The notes beneath the pieces were generated by a model, which was given only the letters and a program-made list of their open reading frames with translations, did no database searches and was not told where the DNA came from. Shown piece by piece: positions 578-46,857 of a stretch of DNA of 64,000 nt. Where the stretch lies: NCBI GenBank assembly GCA_000004695.1, contig CM000151.3:3072001-3136000 (forward strand), in the 5' to 3' direction. This DNA is from Dictyostelium discoideum. Taxonomy: Eukaryota. Position 1 is the stretch's first letter; every line of letters starts with the position of its first letter. Both the position numbers and the translations under genes were made by a program.

Positions 578-4565
<3,988 letters not shown>

Positions 4566-18094: not shown

Positions 18095-18328
18095 TTAAAG
18101 ACCATATTCAAAATCAATGAAACATTGATGAATATCATTCATATCACTCATTACAAATGGTCCATATTTAAATATTGGTTCTTGAATTTGTTTTGATGAA
18201 AAGAATAAAAGTCTTGAATTTGATTTAGATGTTATTGAAACTCTATTAAAGGTACAATTTTCATTATCTATATCTATATTATCACTACCACCACTATTAT
18301 TATTTATATTACTATTATTATTTGTACA

Positions 18329-18361
<33 letters not shown>

Positions 18362-18545
18362 TGATTTTCTATTAAATACAATAAGTTTTCCAGGACCAAT
18401 AGGTTTTGAATTATTTATTGAAACTGGACCATCTAAAACCAATAAAAATGAACCAAATGTTTCATTTATATCAATTTCAAATGGAGTAGTAGATTCTTTT
18501 TTACAAGTATATTCTTCATTATTTTCACCATTATTATCATTAGTA

Positions 18546-18612
<67 letters not shown>

Positions 18613-19366
18613 CACCACCATTATCACCATTATCTGCACTTATAAGTTGATTGTTATTATTATTATTATCAGTATTTAATTTTATATCAATATCTAAAAC
18701 TTGAGGATTTAAACCTAAACTTTTTAAAGGACTTTTATGTAATATCTTTGTTTCATTATCTAAATATTGACCAGAGATAACTTTAATCATGAAATCAGTA
18801 TTACCATTTGTACGTTGAATTAATGGAATTGATTCATTCGATACATATTGGTAATCTGGTTCAACCATTTTCAATTGTTTTGGTAAATTTAACCAATAAT
18901 GAATGACCCAAAGTTTAGAGGTTGTCGAGGATGGCATCTCACTATGTACTATACCTTTACCCGATAGTATCCATTGAAGATCACCTGTCTTTAATACAAC
19001 TTTATTACCTAACGAATCATTATGTACCATCAAACCTTCCAACATATATGTCACCAATTGAATACCACGATGTGGATGATCTGGGAATCCTTTTTCATAT
19101 TCTTGAGGTGAATTGGTATTAATTTCATCCAACAATACAAATGGATCAATATGTTGTAACTCTTTATCACCACCTATTAATCTATTCAATACAAATCCTC
19201 CACCGTCACACATATTCTTTTCAAATCTATATACTTTAAATAATGAATTACTCTCTATTAATCCATTCTTTAATACTTTAACAATAACTTCTTTTTCATT
19301 TTTATTACAATTAATTTCACCACCACCACTACTACTACTACTACTACCACTAGTACTAATTGTACA

Positions 19367-19401
<35 letters not shown>

Positions 19402-19465
19402 TGTTATTATTATTATTAATGTTATTATTTCTTTGGACTGGTGTTGAGAAGCAATCCATCATCAT
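18095..19465 (-). CDS. Pirin (bicupin) family protein, single exon, with long Asn/Ser low-complexity insertions
   Basis: GGGFVLNRLIGGDKELQHIDPFVLLDEI...GFPDHPHRGIQLVTYMLEGLMVHNDSLGNKVVLKTGDLQWILSGKGIVHSEMP matches the pirin N-terminal cupin signature (P-H-R-G-F/I-x-x-V/T-Y-x-L-x-G ... GD-Q-WMTAG-GI-HSE). The C-terminal cupin is interrupted by poly-N runs. Confidence 0.8.
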
Positions 19466-21272: not shown

Positions 21273-22824
21273 TTAAACTTTATTAACCAATTAATTATTT
21301 TTATTTATTTTTTTTTTTTTTAAAAAAAAAAAAAGATATGGTACCAGAAATAGAAAGAAAGAAACCACATTCAAATTATAGCCAAGTGTTGGCATGGTTT
21401 AGTGATTATCCTTCAAAGGAGCATGTATATGGTATACATCAAATTGTAAATAAAAAACAAGCAATGGAAAAGAATAATAGAAAACAACAAATTTTAAGAG
21501 AACAAGTGATTTCATTAAATCGAGGAGGAGGAGGAAGTTCTAAAGGAAAAAAGAAAAAAGAAAAAGAAGAAGAGATAAATGATAATGTAGAGGAATGGTT
21601 AGCTCCAACTAGAATTTCAAATATTTTAAGACAATTAATTAAATTTCAACATTTGGAAGATTTAGAAATGTACGTTCCAACTGATGGTGTCATATATAAA
21701 GATTATATAAATAATTTATGTAATAATAGTAATACACATAATCATTATCAAATTATTCAACAACAATTACAACATTTAAGAGAACAACAAAATATTCAAC
21801 AAAATAATAATAAAAATAATAATAACAACAACCCAACAACCACAACAACTACAACAACCACAGCAACAAGTAGTAATAATAACAATAATCAATCACCACC
21901 ATCTAGAGTACCAAATGGATATAATAATCAAGTATTTGATGATGAATCATTATTTGACTATAACACAGCTATTAGTTCAATACCACCAAAGTGGAAATCA
22001 TTGATTATTATGATACCTTTGAAATTGGGTGCAGATAAATTAAACTCAACCTATATTGAAAAATTAAAATTATTATTAAAATTACCACAAAGTTTAGGTT
22101 TTATTGGTGGTAAACCAAAACAATCATTTTATTTTATTGGTTTTCAAGATGATCAAGTCATTTATTTAGATCCTCATTTTGTCCAAGAAAGTGTTAATCC
22201 AAATTCATTCGATTATTCAAATGTAAGTTTTATAAATAATAATAATAATAATTCATTCGATTATTCAAATCTAAGTTTTATTAATATATATTTATATATA
22301 TATTATAAATAATAATTAAATAGACATATAGTGGATGTATACCGCAAAAAATGCCATTTACACAATTAGATCCATCTTTATCAATTGGATTTTATTGTAG
22401 AGATCAAGCAAGTTTTGAAGATCTTTGTGATAGATTATCTGTAATTAATAATTGTGAATTTCCAATCATTTCAGTTTGTCAAAAGTTACCAGATTATCAA
22501 ATCGAATGTGAATTGGTTGATGATTATGCAGAGAGTGAAACAACTGAAATGCTTGCAATCACTATTGCAAATGGTGGAAATAATCATTCTTGTATTCCTG
22601 AAAATATTGTTGTTGATGATGAAGAATTTATAGTTCATCATCATATTCCCTATAATCCAAATAATAATCAAAATAATAATCAAAATAATAATAATAACAA
22701 CAACAAAAACAACAACAACAACACTAACCAACAACAAACTCCAAACTATCCACCAAAATTAAATACTTATCAACCTGATTTTTCTAGTGATGGTGAAATC
22801 GATGATTTTACAATGGTTGGCTAA
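20131..22824 (+). CDS. atg4: Autophagy cysteine protease Atg4 (C54 peptidase). Five exons: 20131..20167, 20298..20684, 20759..21184, 21336..22222, 22324..22824.
   Basis: The catalytic Cys is in ...DIGWGCMLRTGQMILARAL and the catalytic Asp-Pro-His in ...VIYLDPHFVQ. Flanking blocks read SFYNLYRN-Y-PTEPPHFSPSPIWLMGRCYTS, YSQVLAWFSDYPSKEHVYGIHQIV, GFIGGKPKQSFYFIGFQDDQ, LDPSLSIGFYCRDQASFEDLCDRL. All are colinear with ATG4B. Splice phases are consistent (CAG G|GTAAGT...TTTAG|AT; ...AATT|GTATGT...AAAG|AT; AAT G|GTATGA...AAAG|AT; AAT|GTAAGT...ATAG|ACA). Exon 2 carries a Gln-rich N-terminal extension. Confidence 0.85.
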
Positions 22825-27905: not shown

Positions 27906-29266
27906 ATGATTTATTTAAAAATATTAGAAAAATTAAATCAAGCAATTTGGTTATTCGATATAAATAAAAGAGTATTGATTTGGGGTAATCAATCATGTAA
28001 AAAATATAAAAATATTGAATCAATAACATCATTATTTAATAATTCAAATTTAATAAATGATATTAGAAATGGTAAATCAAAACATGAACACATCGATATA
28101 ATAGAATCCAACGAAAATGGAGAGATTTTAAAACAAATGATATTTAAATATTCATCAATACATATTAGTGATATGGATGCAAGACAATTATATTTGGATA
28201 CTAGTATTAATTTATTAGTAAATCAAGATAGTCATTATTTAGATTACGAAGGTAAACGAATTTTTATATTAGTAGAAGCAATTGAAGAAATTAAATTTAT
28301 TCAATCACCATTATCATCATCAATTGAAAATCATAATATAAATAATAATCAAAATAATCAAAATTCTGTAAATATTAATAGTAGTAATAAAGGACAATAT
28401 AATAGACCAGAACCATCAAACATGGGATCTTGGGAATGGAATGTTCAAAATGATACAACTAAAGCATCTAATCAATTTTATAAAATAATTGGTATTGAAA
28501 ATGATTTTAATAAAAAATTGAATTTTAATGATTTTATTAATAAACTTGGTATTCAAGAAATTCAACCAATAATTAATAATTGTATAGAATCAAATAGTTC
28601 TTCATTTGAATATCCATTAAGAATTAATAGAAAAAATGATAATTTAGTTAGATATATTCAATTAAAGTTTGTATTATTATTATTATTATAATTATCATTT
28701 TTATTAATTATTTATTAATTTCCAAACTTTTTTTTTTATTTTTTTTTTTTTTTTTCAATGAAAAAAAAAAGAGGTGAAATTATTAAAAAAGATGATAAAG
28801 TTTTTAAAGTTTTAGGAGTTTGTCATGATTTTAGTGAAATTCAAGAAGCAAAAGATAAATTAGAAGAAGAGAGTAAATTTGTTGAAGCATTAATTGGTTG
28901 TTTAAAAGCAGGCATTGTTGCATGTAATTCAAATGGTGATTTAACACATTTCAATAAGAGTGCACAAGATTTACATGGATTAGAATTGAACGATAAAACC
29001 GATAGAAAACAATTATTAGATCAAATTTTAAAATGTTATAGATCACCATATGAACAAATAAATTTAGAAAAATCAGGTACACCAATTATTAGAGCATTAA
29101 GTGGTGAATTTATAAATGATCAAGAAATTATAATTACTCCAACTTCAAATCAACAACAATCATCATTATCAAAATCAAATAGACCAAGATCACAATCAAA
29201 TTGTTCAAATGGTAATAAATCACAAAATAGATTATCAAAAAATTATAGTACAACAACAACAACAAC

Positions 29267-29330
<64 letters not shown>

Positions 29331-32282
29331 TCAATTTCACAACAACAACAAACACAAGTATCAACACAACAAACACAACAACAACAAAATACAACAAATG
29401 GAATAGGTGGTGCAACAACATCAACAACAGCAGCAGCAGCAACAATAACATCACCACAACAAATACCAATTGCAACTAAAATTCCAACAAAGATAAATGA
29501 TAATGAATTTTTAGTTTTGGCAAGTGGTCAAGAGATTGTTTCAAAAGATGGTAAAACCATTGGTGCATTTGTAGCCTTACATGATATTACTGAAAGAAAA
29601 CGTAATGAAGTTATACTAAAGAATGCAACAGAGGAGGCACAAAGGGCTAATCAATTAAAAGGTGAATTTTTGGCAAATATTAGTCATGAATTATTGAGTC
29701 CAATGAATTCAATCATTGGTATGGTTGGTTTATGTTTAGATGTTGCACCAAGGAATCTAAAGGAAATGTTAAATGATGTTGTGGAGTCGTCAAAGATTCT
29801 ATTGGATTTACTTCACCAAATTTTAGATTTCACAACATTGGAATCAAATTCATTGGCAGTTAGACCTTTCCCATTCAAGTTACGTGATACATTCAATCAA
29901 TTATTTAAAGTTTTCTATACACGTATCATTGAAAAGAAGATTAGTTTAACCTTTTCAATCGATCCAAATATTGCCGATGATTTCTATGGTGATCAAAATC
30001 GTTTAAAACAAATCCTTTCAAATCTAATTGATAATGCAATAAAATTTTCAAATTCTTCAAATATAAATAATTCAATTTCAATCATTGTTGAACAATTAAC
30101 TCATAATCAATTTAAAAAATATAAAGACTCTTTTAGATCAAATTCAAAGACTCATAGTAGATTAAATTCACATGATGATTATAGTATCGATGGTGATTAT
30201 GATGATCAAGATAATAATGATTCTTATTTTGGTAGAGATATTAATGTTTCAGATAATGAATCAGCTGTTGGTGGTTTTAGTGAATTAGATGAAAAAGATA
30301 ATAGTGATGATGATGATGAAAATGATGATGAAAATGATGAAACTGATGAAAATGATGATGATACCGACGACGATACATCATCAAACACTTCAAGAAATAA
30401 TATAAGTAATAATTTATTATTTCATAATAATACCAGTGGTGGTGGTGGAGGTGGTATTAATAAACGTGAAAAATTTAAAAAAAAAGATCGTGAAGGGTTT
30501 GTTAATCTAAAATTTTCAATTAAAGATCGTGGTATTGGTGTACCAGAGGATAAACATGATTTCATTTTCGATAGATTCTTTCAAGTTGATGGTTCATATA
30601 GTCGTGTTCAAGGTGGTGTTGGTTTAGGTTTAAGTATTTGCAAAAAGTTAATTGAATTCTTTGGTGGTGCAATTTGGTTTGAAAGTGAAGCATCACAAGG
30701 TTCAACTTTTCATTTCATTCTCTCAATTAAAAGTGTTGAAGCACCATCACCAAAATCACCTTCATTACAATCAAGTAATGGTTCAATCAATTCAACCACT
30801 AAATTATTTGAATCTAGTAGATTAAAAAATGAAATTTATATTCCATCACTTCCAAATGTTCAAACTAAAAAAGTGAAAAAAGATTCAAATGATAATGGTA
30901 ATAACGATTCAACAAATTATGGTATTTCTTTAAGTAATAGTATGAATAATATAAATATCAATGGTAGTACATTAAATAATAATAATAGTATTAATAATAA
31001 TAATAATTCAAATGATAATGGTCCATTAACAAGTCGTACACCATCAAATAGTTATTATAATTTCATTGCCTCTTTAAATAATACATCATTAAAATCTTCA
31101 AGTCATAATACTCTTAGTTCAAGTCCAACTGGTTTTAATGGTATTTCAAATTTAAATATTAGTGGTTTAAATAATCTTAGTAATTTATCAAATAATCCAA
31201 ATAATCTTAATAATATAATTGGTAATACTAATGGAAATAATAATACCAATGGAAATAATAATAGTGGTATAAGTTTAAATAATAGTAATAATAATATTCA
31301 AACTCCAAATGGTTTAAATAATAGTCGTGGTTCAAGTTTAATTTCAACACCTTCAACTAAAAATGTTAAAAAACAACATAGTTGTCCAATGGATTTAATT
31401 CAAAGAATTCATTCAATTTGTACACCACGTGGTCCAATTTCCAAAGAATGTGGTTTAAATAATTTACCAGCTTATTCACCACCAAAATCACCTGGTCGTA
31501 GTTTAAGTCACGGTGGTAAAAATTATTCAAATTTAATTAGTACCCCTAGAGGTGGTGTTGGTTATAGTTCACCACCTATCAACAGTAGTAGTAGTAGTGG
31601 GGGTGGTAGCAGTACAAATGGTAGCAATAGTGGTAATAGTAGTGCAAATAATTCAACTCCTTCATCATCTTCATTATCCTCAACTCCATTAACATCTTCA
31701 AATACACCATCACCAGTTTCAATATCATCAAATAATGTTAATAATAATAATCAACAACAACAAACACAACCAATTTTATCACCAATTTTACCATTAAAAG
31801 ATAACTCAATTGATATCTCTGATTTAAATAATATTAATAGTTTAACACCAAATTCTTCAAATTCAACCTCAACAAATGTAACTCAAAGCAGTTCAAATAT
31901 TATTAATAATGGTAATAGTATAACAATTATAAATAATAATCCAGTTACTCCAAATGGTAAAAAAATAGTTATAGTTCCATTATTAAGTTTACAATCTGCT
32001 TCATCACCAAAACAATCACAACGTGGTTATTCACCAAAACAGCAATACTCTCCAAAACAATATTCACCAAAACAACAATATTCACCAAAACAATATTCAC
32101 CAAAACAGCAACAACAACAGCAACAACAACAACAACAATTAGAACAATTGAGTGGAAGAATGTCACCACATAAATCCAATTTAAGTAGTACAAATCTTCA
32201 TCATATTCATCATCATCATATTCATCAACAACAATCTCAACAACATAATAATACTACTGTTCATTCAAATAATTTAATTTTA

Positions 32283-32371
<89 letters not shown>

Positions 32372-33209
32372 CACTACAAATACAAGTAATAATCATACAT
32401 CTGATCCATCAAAATCATCAAATTCAACACCTGAAACATCACCACCAATTAGTTCACCAAGAAGCAATAATAATAATAATTGTAGTTTAACTACAATAGT
32501 AGGAGTAACAACACCACCACAACCATCATCAACAATTACTACACCACAATTCCAATCACCACCAATTTTATCAGGAAATAGTGGTAATATTAATTTATTA
32601 AGTAGTAATGGTACAAGCAGCGGTGGAATTGAAATTAGTGGTAGTCAAATGATTCCACAAAAAGTATTGGTAGCAGAAGATAATACAATGAATCAAAAAT
32701 TAATAAAGACATTATTAACTAAAAGAGGTTTTGATATTACCATTGCAAAAGATGGTAAACAAGCCTTAGATTTCTATCATGAAAGTAAAAATAAATCAAT
32801 ACTTTATGATTGTATATTAATGGATATTCAAATGCCAGTTTTATCAGGTTTAGAAGCAACTTGTGCAATTCGTGAAATCGAAGCAAATGAAGGTGGTCAT
32901 ATTCCAATCATTGCTGTAACTGCTCATGCAATGAAAGGTGATAAAGAAAAGTTTTTAGAATCTGGTGTTGATGATTATGTAACAAAACCAATTAACCCAA
33001 AGTTATTATATGAAGTAATAAATACTCAAATCTGTAAATATATTGAAGAAAATCGTTCATCATCTACAATAAATGAAAATAAAAATACAATTAATAATAA
33101 TAATAATAATACAAATAATAATAATAATAACAATAATTCAAGTAACCCTGTTAATAATAATAATAGCAATAGTATTGATGCTACTCAACAAGAATTAAAT
33201 AATGAATAA
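27906..33209 (+). CDS. Cytosolic hybrid sensor histidine kinase (PAS - HisKA - HATPase_c - receiver). Two exons: 27906..28666, 28772..33209 (about 1730 aa), with very long N/S/Q-rich linkers.
   Basis: PAS-like N-terminus, exon-2 start ...GEIIKKDDKVFKVLGVCHDFSEIQEAK. The H-box is LANISHELLSPMNSIIGM. The N-box is LKQILSNLIDNAIKFS. G1 is IKDRGIGVPEDKHDFIFDRFFQVD, and G2 is [35 protein letters not shown]. The receiver is KVLVAEDNTMNQKLIKTLL...DCILMDIQMPVLSGLEA...IPIIAVTAHAMKGDKEKFLESGVDDYVTKP. The proposed donor AA|GTTTGT at 28667 is weak, and the acceptor AAAAAAG|A is at 28771. Confidence 0.85.
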
Positions 33210-37991: not shown

Positions 37992-38693
37992 ATGACAGAA
38001 GTTACTTACCAAATTCAAGACCAAATAAAACAATTTAACAATTTTAATCCCATTCAAAAAACAAATTATAAATATCAATATAATAGTGATAATGAAAATT
38101 CTTCTTTGGTTTATTTAATTAAAAATCCCAAACAAAACAATTTTAAAAATTATAATAATAAAATATGTAATTATAAAAGAAGTTTATCTTCTTCATCATT
38201 CCAAGGAAACGAAGAAAAAGAAACTAGAAAGAAAAATAAGGCTCAATTTTATGAAAATGATTTTGAAAATGGATTTGGAAATATTTCATCTTGGTTGAAT
38301 AATTCAATACCATATAAATGTGAAGATTGTAATGGAAATAATGAACCACCTCATCAAAAATTGAAATCTCAGGATATTCCATTATTCACTTTCTTTGAAC
38401 CACTTACTTTTATTCATGAAATTAATAAGGTTATTCATATTGAATTAGAGATAGCAGGGGTCGATAAAGATGATGTTAAAGTTGATCTCACTAACAATAT
38501 TCTTACAATTGTAGCAAAGAAGAAATCAGTTTATCCATTATTTCAAAATATGTGTGAATTTAAAAGACATGAAAAATCAATTGGTGTTTACAAAAGAGTA
38601 TTGGAATTTAATTCAAATACTGTTGACAAAGATACAATTAAAGCAAGATATGTTAATGGTATTTTATTAATTACAGTCAACAAATTTCTGTAA
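37992..38693 (+). CDS. Small heat-shock protein of the Hsp20 / alpha-crystallin family, single exon, with an N-terminal Asn/Tyr-rich region
   Basis: The alpha-crystallin domain reads ...IHIELEIAGVDKDDVKVDLTNNILTIVAKKK...FKRHEKSIGVYKRVLEFNSNTVDKDTIKARYVNGILLITVNK. This is the G-x-L-x-I-x-V-P/N-K C-terminal signature of Hsp20. Confidence 0.8.
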   Translation: MTEVTYQIQDQIKQFNNFNPIQKTNYKYQYNSDNENSSLVYLIKNPKQNNFKNYNNKICNYKRSLSSSSFQGNEEKETRKKNKAQFYENDFENGFGNISSWLNNSIPYKCEDCNGNNEPPHQKLKSQDIPLFTFFEPLTFIHEINKVIHIELEIAGVDKDDVKVDLTNNILTIVAKKKSVYPLFQNMCEFKRHEKSIGVYKRVLEFNSNTVDKDTIKARYVNGILLITVNKFL

Positions 38694-45780: not shown

Positions 45781-46181
45781 TTATTTCATACCTTTTAATT
45801 GTTGAACTTTTTGAGCTAAAATTTCATCAGTTAAATCTTGTGAAGGATTTTCAGAAAATAATGAAACATGAATTGGTGAAAAGAATTCATCAATCTTACC
45901 TCTATGAGTTGTTAGACGACCTTTAACCATTGGTGAAACTGATACGCCAACAAAGGTAATTTGAGCATGTTTTGGTTGAACGATACCATCGATAACATCA
46001 GTGGTCGCAACGATACCATAGTTTACATTTTGATCCTTTAAATGTGAGACTAACTCCTGAAGACCACCAGTACCTTTACCAACTAAACCTAATCTTTCTT
46101 TATCTTCATAACCAATTAACATCCAATTAATTGGATCAGATGATGTTTTAACTTGTTCAACTATTTTTTTTAATTCATAAT
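45781..46181 (-). CDS. Second coactosin-type ADF-H domain coding region immediately downstream, in a different frame, with no initiator ATG of its own. It is either a second exon/domain of the upstream unit or a separate truncated or pseudogenic copy.
   Basis: The frame opens after TGA at 46182-46184. It reads NYELKKIVEQVKTSSDPINWMLIGYEDKERLGLVGKGTGGLQELVSHLKDQNVNYGIVATTDVIDGIVQPKHAQITFVGVSVSPMVKGRLTTHRGKIDEFFSPIHVSLFSENPSQDLTDEILAQKVQQLKGMK*. This is a full ADF-H fold lacking only about 5 N-terminal residues. Confidence 0.5.
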
Positions 46182-46541
46182 TTCAGTTTCACTTAATTCA
46201 CTCTTTAATGATGCAATGATTTCAACATTATAATGACCAAGTAATTTTGTAACTGATGTTTTATTTACACTGTATTTGGCTTTTTCAATGGCTTTAACAT
46301 TATCACCAATAAATGTAATATAAACGAATCTATCAGTTGGAATTCCATCAACATGATCAACTACTCTGAGAATTGCATAAACCATTGATGTATCATCAAA
46401 ATGTTCAATTAATTCATTAATACCTTTAGTACCAGTTGATAATAATTTAATTTTATCTGGTGATCCATCATAACTTTAAAAAATAAAAAAAAAACAGGAA
46501 AAAAAAGATAAAAATAAAAAATTAATATCTGAGATTTTTTA

Positions 46542-46573
<32 letters not shown>

Positions 46574-46754
46574 AGAAATAAAATTACCCAACTAATAACC
46601 AATTTGTGGCACTATCTGTTTTGTGGACAGATTTAACTGCATCATTAAAATCTTCAAGATTTGATACAGAAACGGAATTACCAGCTCCTGGGGTGCTCAT
46701 TGAGCCTGCTTTTCTTTCAGCTAATGAAAATCTTAATTGGCCATCTGTTGACAT
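46170..46754 (-). CDS. Coactosin-type ADF-H (actin-depolymerising-factor homology) protein with a ~28-aa N-terminal extension. Two exons: 46588..46754, 46170..46473 (156 aa, terminated by TAA at 46170-46172).
   Basis: MSTDGQLRF...SNLEDFNDAVKSVHKTDSATNWLLVG | YDGSPDKIKLLSTGTKGINELIEHFDDTSMVYAILRVVDHVDGIPTDRFVYITFIGDNVKAIEKAKYSVNKTSVTKLLGHYNVEIIASLKSELSETEIMN*. It is colinear with coactosin (...AVIWVTFKYDGS...VRLFAFVRFTTGD...SKRSKFALITWIGENV...). The donor is GG|GTAATT and the acceptor AAAG|T (phase 2+1). Confidence 0.7.

Positions 46755-46794: not shown

Positions 46795-46857
<63 letters not shown>

Follow-up and report, generated by a model that had tools for sequence, protein, structure and literature searches.

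A frame-shifting linker deletion probably disrupts a conserved two-domain ADF-H gene in a lineage of Dictyostelium discoideum

Organization of the locus

The window, the 64,000-nt stretch of D. discoideum DNA analyzed here, has a G+C content of about 22% and its open reading frames (ORFs) are rich in Asn and Gln, a composition typical of Dictyostelium. Two ADF-H units lie in tandem on the minus strand (46754..45781), the second unit being in the -1/+2 frame. The locus comprises the following features:

46798..46854, minus strand: homopolymer of 57 nt (T on the coding strand) within an AT-rich upstream region, 44 nt from the ATG
46588..46754, minus strand: exon 1 of the ADF-H gene, ATG at 46754..46752, encoding MSTDGQLRFSLAERKAG... 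to ...NWLLVG(G); its junction agrees with the intron-less transcript contig L003
46474..46587, minus strand: intron 1, 114 nt, GTAATT...TTTTAAAG, absent from the L003 transcript contig and present in the genomic loci L001 and L002
46170..46473, minus strand: exon 2 up to the premature stop; finishes ADF-H domain 1 and ends ...SLKSELSETEIMN, followed by TAA at 46172..46170
46161..46192, minus strand: 32-nt pseudo-intron GTGAAACTG...AAAATAG, which restores the frame in GenBank model ACTFIT_002973 (P0004, 275 aa)
46173..46176, minus strand: deletion junction with the 4-nt microhomology GAAT; compared with intact alleles, 196-199 nt that encode the linker are gone here
46164..46171, minus strand: A8 run, of which the first two A's are part of the premature TAA; the same run occurs in the intact alleles L003 and L004
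45781..46182, minus strand: ADF-H domain 2 in the -1/+2 frame, NYELKKIVEQVK...QQLKGMK, stop TAA at 45783..45781, first ATG at 46122..46120

As proposed in the initial annotation, unit 1 consists of two exons (46754..46588 and 46473..46170) and terminates with a TAA that extends to 46170. Exon 2 reads ...IIASLKSELSETEIMN from 46473 up to this codon, and the C-terminal end of unit 1 is ...SETEIMN. Unit 2 reads NYELKKIVEQVKTSSDPINWMLIGYEDKE...; a TGA at 46185..46183 precedes its frame, which is open from 46182 onwards and shares 13 nt with the end of unit 1. Two positions in the initial annotation required correction. The second frame had been placed 10 nt after the stop, but in the direction of transcription it opens 10 nt before it, at a higher plus-strand coordinate; and the A8 run, given as 46162-46169, is located at 46171..46164. 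Domain 2 includes the peptides LGLVGK and IDEFFSPIHVSLFSENPSQDLTDEILAQK.

The perfect 57-nt A/T homopolymer at 46798..46854 is shorter in L001 and L002 and thus constitutes a length-variable tract in the presumed promoter. Scans of both strands for Rfam families, tRNAs and tandem repeats yielded nothing relevant, and the plus-strand ORFs across the locus are short and of low complexity.

Elsewhere in the window, a 1,483-aa ORF (28758..33209, plus strand) shows, by eye, HisKA/HATPase-like motifs and a C-terminal receiver domain, as in a hybrid histidine kinase. Further ORFs resemble, again by eye, an M1-type aminopeptidase (1350..2762, minus strand), pirin (18095..19465, minus strand) and an Atg4-like protease (21338..22824, plus strand). 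Two other window ORFs, of 301 and 456 aa, and an ORF of 154 aa had no exact match in the look-up.

Both units are ADF-H domains

Both units score well above the gathering threshold of 22.4 bits of the Pfam family PF00241 (Cofilin_ADF). Unit 1 reaches 86 bits (E 2.1e-24) over model positions 3-123 of 125, corresponding to residues 38-155 of the 156-aa product, while unit 2 reaches 57.6 bits (E 1.4e-15) over model positions 2-125 of 125. The two units share 26% identity (E 9e-18), far above chance, and PF00241 is the sole Pfam domain in the window units and in all homologues. Both are true ADF-H domains, and the initial description of two tandem units, split by a stop and a +2 frame, is upheld.

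For classification, a family profile from 15 members was searched against PDB sequences. Domain 1 matched the coactosin-like protein COTL1 best (E ~1e-14) and also yeast Abp1, whereas domain 2 gave drebrin-like (E 6e-23) and drebrin (E 2e-22) as best matches, together with Entamoeba coactosin. Unit 2 of the window alone matched the drebrin-like and drebrin ADF-H domains with an E-value of 2e-11. In the PDB sequence searches cofilins were much weaker than coactosin, drebrin and Abp1 chains, and no twinfilin chain appeared in the profile search at E <= 0.01. By sequence, the domains are assigned to the coactosin/drebrin/Abp1 class.

Structural comparisons were based on an AlphaFold2 model of the intact conspecific orthologue P0001, not of the truncated products of the window. 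The model predicts two ADF-H folds (pLDDT about 76-92), each with the mixed beta-sheet and flanking helices that define the fold, and predicts residues 1-25 and 165-213 to be disordered. Single modelled domains of P0001 superimposed on COTL1, the drebrin ADF-H domain and EhCoactosin with TM scores of 0.87-0.89 at 19-31% identity (Foldseek). Identity to COTL1 and EhCoactosin is 19-25% in this range of TM scores, UniRef labels the orthologues 'Coactosin', and the 156-aa truncated product of the window is secondarily coactosin-sized. However, coactosins are single-domain proteins of about 140-150 aa, while the ancestral gene discussed below encodes a pair of ADF-H domains along with a long disordered linker and an N-terminal LRFSLAERK extension. 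Domain 2 resembles drebrin/Abp1 (HIP-55) with a TM score of 0.88 and 30% identity, but the tandem ADF-H protein has neither a proline-rich region nor an SH3 domain, Pfam giving Cofilin_ADF alone; in Abp1 and drebrin a single N-terminal ADF-H domain precedes helical or proline-rich regions, and Abp1 adds an SH3 domain at the C terminus. Coactosin binds the sides of F-actin without severing or depolymerizing it, an activity that is putative for the tandem ADF-H protein.

The initial annotation had listed a twinfilin-like gene among its alternatives. The likeness stands for the two-domain layout and fails for the domain class, as well as for the C-terminal tail, which is absent. Twinfilin comprises two ADF-H domains, a short linker and, at the C terminus, a tail to which capping protein binds (PMC10638096). 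The ancestral gene likewise has two ADF-H domains in one chain plus a linker, which in the window allele are separated by a stop and a frame shift; however, the tandem ADF-H protein lacks the tail and its linker is long, with about 50 disordered residues. Full-length twinfilin (7ccc_B) tops the Foldseek results by E-value, as both domains align, yet with 11% identity and a global TM score of 0.33; isolated twinfilin domains rank 26th or below, with 13-16% identity. The resemblance to twinfilin is architectural only.

Intact orthologues carry both domains in a single ORF

A search with both units joined returned single proteins of 333-354 aa that span both units, from D. discoideum (P0001, 352 aa), D. 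dimigraforme, D. firmibasis, Tieghemostelium, Acytostelium and environmental amoebozoan sequences. Three more came from a cluster look-up: P0019 (356 aa) and, at 351 aa each, P0020 and P0022. The single-ORF two-domain form is thus found in three other D. discoideum assemblies (P0001, P0019 and P0020) and in Logan contigs (P0021/P0022), and also in D. dimigraforme, D. firmibasis, T. lacteum, Acytostelium, Cavenderia and a genomic ORF of D. purpureum. Its occurrence in D. discoideum isolates and across Dictyostelia bears out the earlier suggestion of a two-domain gene disrupted by a frame shift, in the manner of a pseudogene.

Intact orthologues consist of two domains, 334-356 aa in total, connected by a Ser/Thr-rich linker of ~65 residues. 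Domain 1 ends ...SETEIMNKIQDASGSRNRSG and is followed by the Ser/Thr-rich stretch, then by ...NTKSVGLTFNNESELK(Q/K)IVEQVK... and domain 2. The motifs at the linker edges are kept in every outgroup, with D160, A161, S162, G163 and R165 among the invariant positions of the alignment, and in all orthologues the ORF ends ...QQLKGMK, 5-8 residues past the last helix of domain 2. Both units are located in one exon and one ORF in every relative compared.

All amoebozoan members except Acytostelium have a nearly invariant N-terminal motif, (G)QLRFSLAERKAGS, ahead of domain 1 (residues 5-17 of P0001; window 46742..46704, minus strand), in a region for which the model predicts disorder (pLDDT 31-40). 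At the level of sequence, this LRFSLAERK motif has an R-x-S core similar to a basophilic kinase site.

Evidence that the linker is coding comes from a transcript and from a second species. The 1,139-nt contig L003 (Logan assembly of SRR24091723) contains an uninterrupted 351-aa ORF and lacks intron 1; this shows transcription and splicing of the intact allele, confirms the predicted intron and identifies the linker as exonic. In D. purpureum (GL871119.1; L009 1001-2141), one continuous genomic ORF runs through a comparable Ser/Thr-rich linker (...SRNRTGDSKPTTTH...VNTKSVGLTFKNESEIRAAIQKVK...). Because the genomic sequence is a continuous ORF through the linker, the D. purpureum model DICPUDRAFT_88560 (P0005, 300 aa), in which the linker is spliced out as an intron, is probably wrong.

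The profile search also matched a Cavenderia protein (P0024), three-domain versions from environmental eukaryotic contigs (P0025, 503 aa; P0026, 465 aa), two-domain 'coactosin-like' proteins of the sea anemone Actinia (P0038) and the brachiopod Lingula (P0040), and a coral protein of 250 aa (P0042) covering 59% of the query. P0025, P0026, P0038 and P0040 are without the amoebozoan N-terminal motif. A 342-aa protein assigned to Schistocerca gregaria (P0013, LOC126322706, on a 207,904-nt scaffold) has a tandem ADF-H arrangement of the amoebozoan type, including the N-terminal ELRFSLAERT. Rather than an insect gene, it looks like amoebozoan sequence, from a parasite or a contaminant, within the locust assembly.

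A deletion in exon 2 removes the linker and shifts the frame

The comparison with orthologous loci that the initial annotation had recommended revealed an intact ORF at the syntenic locus and exposed a linker deletion. When the window is aligned with the syntenic locus L001, whose flanks align on both sides, and with L003/L004, there is one clean gap in exon 2 and the remainder is colinear. The gap measures 199 nt relative to L001 and 196 nt relative to L003/L004, both of the form 3n+1 (about 65-66 codons plus 1 nt). Intact alleles read ...ATTATGAAT|AAGATT......AATCGGAAT|TAAAA..., so that the gap edges are two GAAT tetranucleotides, fused at 46176..46173 of the window. The new junction, ATG AAT TAA, itself forms the stop codon, and what was once the 3' half of this exon, the domain 2 segment, has been put out of frame. 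The intact alleles L003 and L004 share GAATTAAAAAAAATAG (ELKK) with the window; in L001 the corresponding codon is CAA (ELKQ).

The same junction is found in a second D. discoideum assembly (L002, GCA_054883475.1); between it and the window there are 3 mismatches and 3 gap openings in 6,970 nt (99.6% identity). The shared deletion confirms the sequence and is silent on allele frequency; the assemblies that share it may represent the same or sister strains.

All outgroups carry the linker with its conserved edge motifs; the state of the window is therefore derived, brought about by a deletion, and an insertion in the relatives was rejected on the same grounds. Domain 2 of the window is identical to that of L002. 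Against the intact alleles it shows 8 nucleotide differences in one comparison (7 synonymous) and 4 in the other (3 synonymous), and neither stops nor indels. Since domain 2 is undecayed, the deletion would be a very recent event within the species. The 4-nt microhomology is weak evidence for a specific deletion mechanism; its chance expectation is estimated at ~5%. Deletions of this kind, flanked by microhomology and producing a premature stop, are commonplace.

Alternative readings of the locus

The domains could still be joined in one protein if an ultra-short intron were spliced. The initial annotation had pointed to candidates of the type GTGAAA/GTGAAT...TAG and doubted them for their length. 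Both were located: GTGAAA...TAG (32 nt, 46192..46161) and GTGAAT...TAG (41 nt, 46201..46161). They have GT...AG ends, are both 3n+2 in length and restore the frame, so that a protein of 275 or 272 aa with both domains and no linker would result, and the 32-nt version is used in P0004 (...SLKSEL|IEQVK...), the automated GenBank annotation of the second deletion-bearing assembly. Nevertheless, the doubt was justified. Median and mean intron length in D. discoideum are 104 and 133 nt (PMC4683709), against which 32 and 41 nt are short, and the true intron of this gene measures 114 nt; the literature searched stated no minimum intron length for Dictyostelium. Both donors sit within conserved coding sequence, the GT sites at 46201 and 46192 being exonic in the spliced L003 transcript, and the mini-intron owes its existence solely to the deletion. 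Judged on the P0001 model, its product would also be missing residues 151-162, which form the C-terminal helix of domain 1, and residues 220-231, half of the first helix of domain 2. A similar pipeline removed the true coding linker in D. purpureum (P0005 versus the genomic ORF). Because it is too short, depends on the deletion, removes helices and lies in a region that such pipelines mishandle, as the D. purpureum case illustrates, the 32-nt intron of ACTFIT_002973 is almost certainly an annotation artefact, and we see only a slim chance that a linker-less two-domain protein is made in this way.

Alternatively, the genome might contain an intact two-domain ORF that was obscured by a sequencing or assembly error, for instance a miscounted A8 run, which the initial annotation had offered as a cause. 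There is indeed a homopolymer at the junction, and differences between the window and L002 elsewhere are mainly in homopolymer lengths. However, an altered length of the A run cannot rescue the gene, since 196-199 nt of conserved coding sequence are gone; the stop TAA comes before the A8 run and overlaps its start; and the same run is present in the intact alleles L003/L004. The cause is the 196-199-nt deletion. Because L002, an independently built assembly, shares the exact junction and the missing linker segment is not a tandem repeat, leaving none to collapse in assembly, an artefact is very unlikely, with hardly any probability attached to it.

It is scarcely credible that the units are separate genes, whether a tandem duplicate lacking its first exon, as also considered initially, or two independently expressed single-domain genes. 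They do differ in frame with a stop between them, and the unit 2 frame has an ATG past the stop (46122). Nonetheless, orthologues hold both units in one exon and one ORF in every relative; the identity of merely 26% between the units implies that the duplication is old; and their 13-nt overlap leaves no promoter-like spacer. A product initiated at the ATG at 46122 would, according to the structural model, lack helix 1 and the beginning of strand 1 of the ADF-H fold.

Recoding, by a programmed -1 frameshift or by termination followed by reinitiation to produce domain 2, is extremely improbable as well: the shift needed is indeed -1 and an A-rich stretch adjoins the junction, but inspection of the sole permissive stretch, between TGA 46185..46183 and TAA 46172..46170, found no X XXY YYZ heptamer, the A run is positioned past the stop, the arrangement is a recent accident missing in all relatives, and in eukaryotes reinitiation downstream of a 156-codon ORF is inefficient.

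A probable AX4 lineage and a possible duplication on chromosome 2

A 233-aa ORF of the window (37992..38693, plus strand) is identical to the AX4 small heat-shock protein hspF (XP_644663.2, XP_001134605.1). Based on this exact match and on the near-identity to L002, the lineage that bears the deletion is apparently the AX4-type laboratory lineage of the species. An AX4-labelled protein from the ADF-H locus was absent from both protein searches, though the AX4 proteome is in the database, as the hspF match shows; we infer that the locus counts as non-coding, or as a pseudogene, in the AX4 annotation. Both protein database searches also failed to reveal an intact paralogue at another site of the genome, either for the ACTFIT assembly or for AX4.

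The hspF sequence is recorded under two AX4 accession pairs (EAL70735.2/XP_644663.2 and EAS66921.1/XP_001134605.1). These two pairs suggest that the window may belong to the chromosome 2 segment that is duplicated in AX3/AX4, in which case there would be two copies of the broken ADF-H locus.

Proposed origin of the allele and its product

The locus very probably represents a conserved dictyostelid two-domain ADF-H gene whose linker was deleted, and whose frame was shifted, in the lineage of the window, resulting in a strain-specific broken allele. The evidence consists of an intact syntenic ORF in conspecifics and outgroups and of a defined lesion that is reproduced in GCA_054883475.1. The conserved gene has one intron and one ORF of ~340-356 aa, encoding the N-terminal LRFSLAERK motif, ADF-H 1, a disordered Ser/Thr-rich linker of ~65 residues and ADF-H 2. 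A 3n+1 deletion, of 196 nt when measured against the closest intact alleles, took the linker and cut into both domains, removing the final half-helix of the first and the initial residues of the second; it joined two GAAT tetranucleotides as replication slippage or microhomology-mediated end joining would do. Translation would halt at the junction TAA, leaving domain 2 in the -1 frame.

The broken allele would thus yield at most a 156-aa single ADF-H protein without the conserved KIQDASGSRNR tail, or no protein at all. The amount of the 156-aa product is possibly lowered, and its mRNA, carrying ~390 nt of old coding sequence as added 3' UTR, may be of reduced stability. Domain 2 would persist as an untranslated, undecayed relic. 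Exact look-ups of the products of the deletion allele (156, 113, 71 and 272 aa) retrieved no record.

These properties are reminiscent of strain-specific frame-shifting deletion alleles, that is, unitary pseudogenes in the making, which share the intact orthologue in conspecifics and outgroups, the single lesion, the premature stop and the undecayed downstream sequence. In contrast to such alleles, the upstream half of the window allele still encodes a nearly complete ADF-H domain.

Implications

A disrupted allele should be entered for this locus in annotations. Two database models are corrected as artefacts, ACTFIT_002973 (275 aa, with the 32-nt intron) and the 300-aa model of D. purpureum.

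In the literature searched, 'two ADF-H domains' led to twinfilin only, and we found no description there of a tandem coactosin-type protein, of the locus as a pseudogene or of the new assemblies. We tentatively raise the possibility that the ancestral gene represents an uncharacterized architecture of two (in some relatives three) coactosin/drebrin-type domains, with the amoebozoan LRFSLAERK and linker-edge motifs, extending from dictyostelids to some cnidarians and a brachiopod, and that it has gone unstudied in Dictyostelium because the laboratory lineage is a natural truncation mutant. If this is true, wild isolates and AX4-type strains would provide a ready genetic contrast for addressing the function of the tandem ADF-H protein.

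The laboratory lineage appears to be without the full-length tandem ADF-H protein, although Dictyostelia as a whole conserve it and other D. discoideum isolates have it intact. Studies of the actin cytoskeleton in this background would therefore have been done in its absence.
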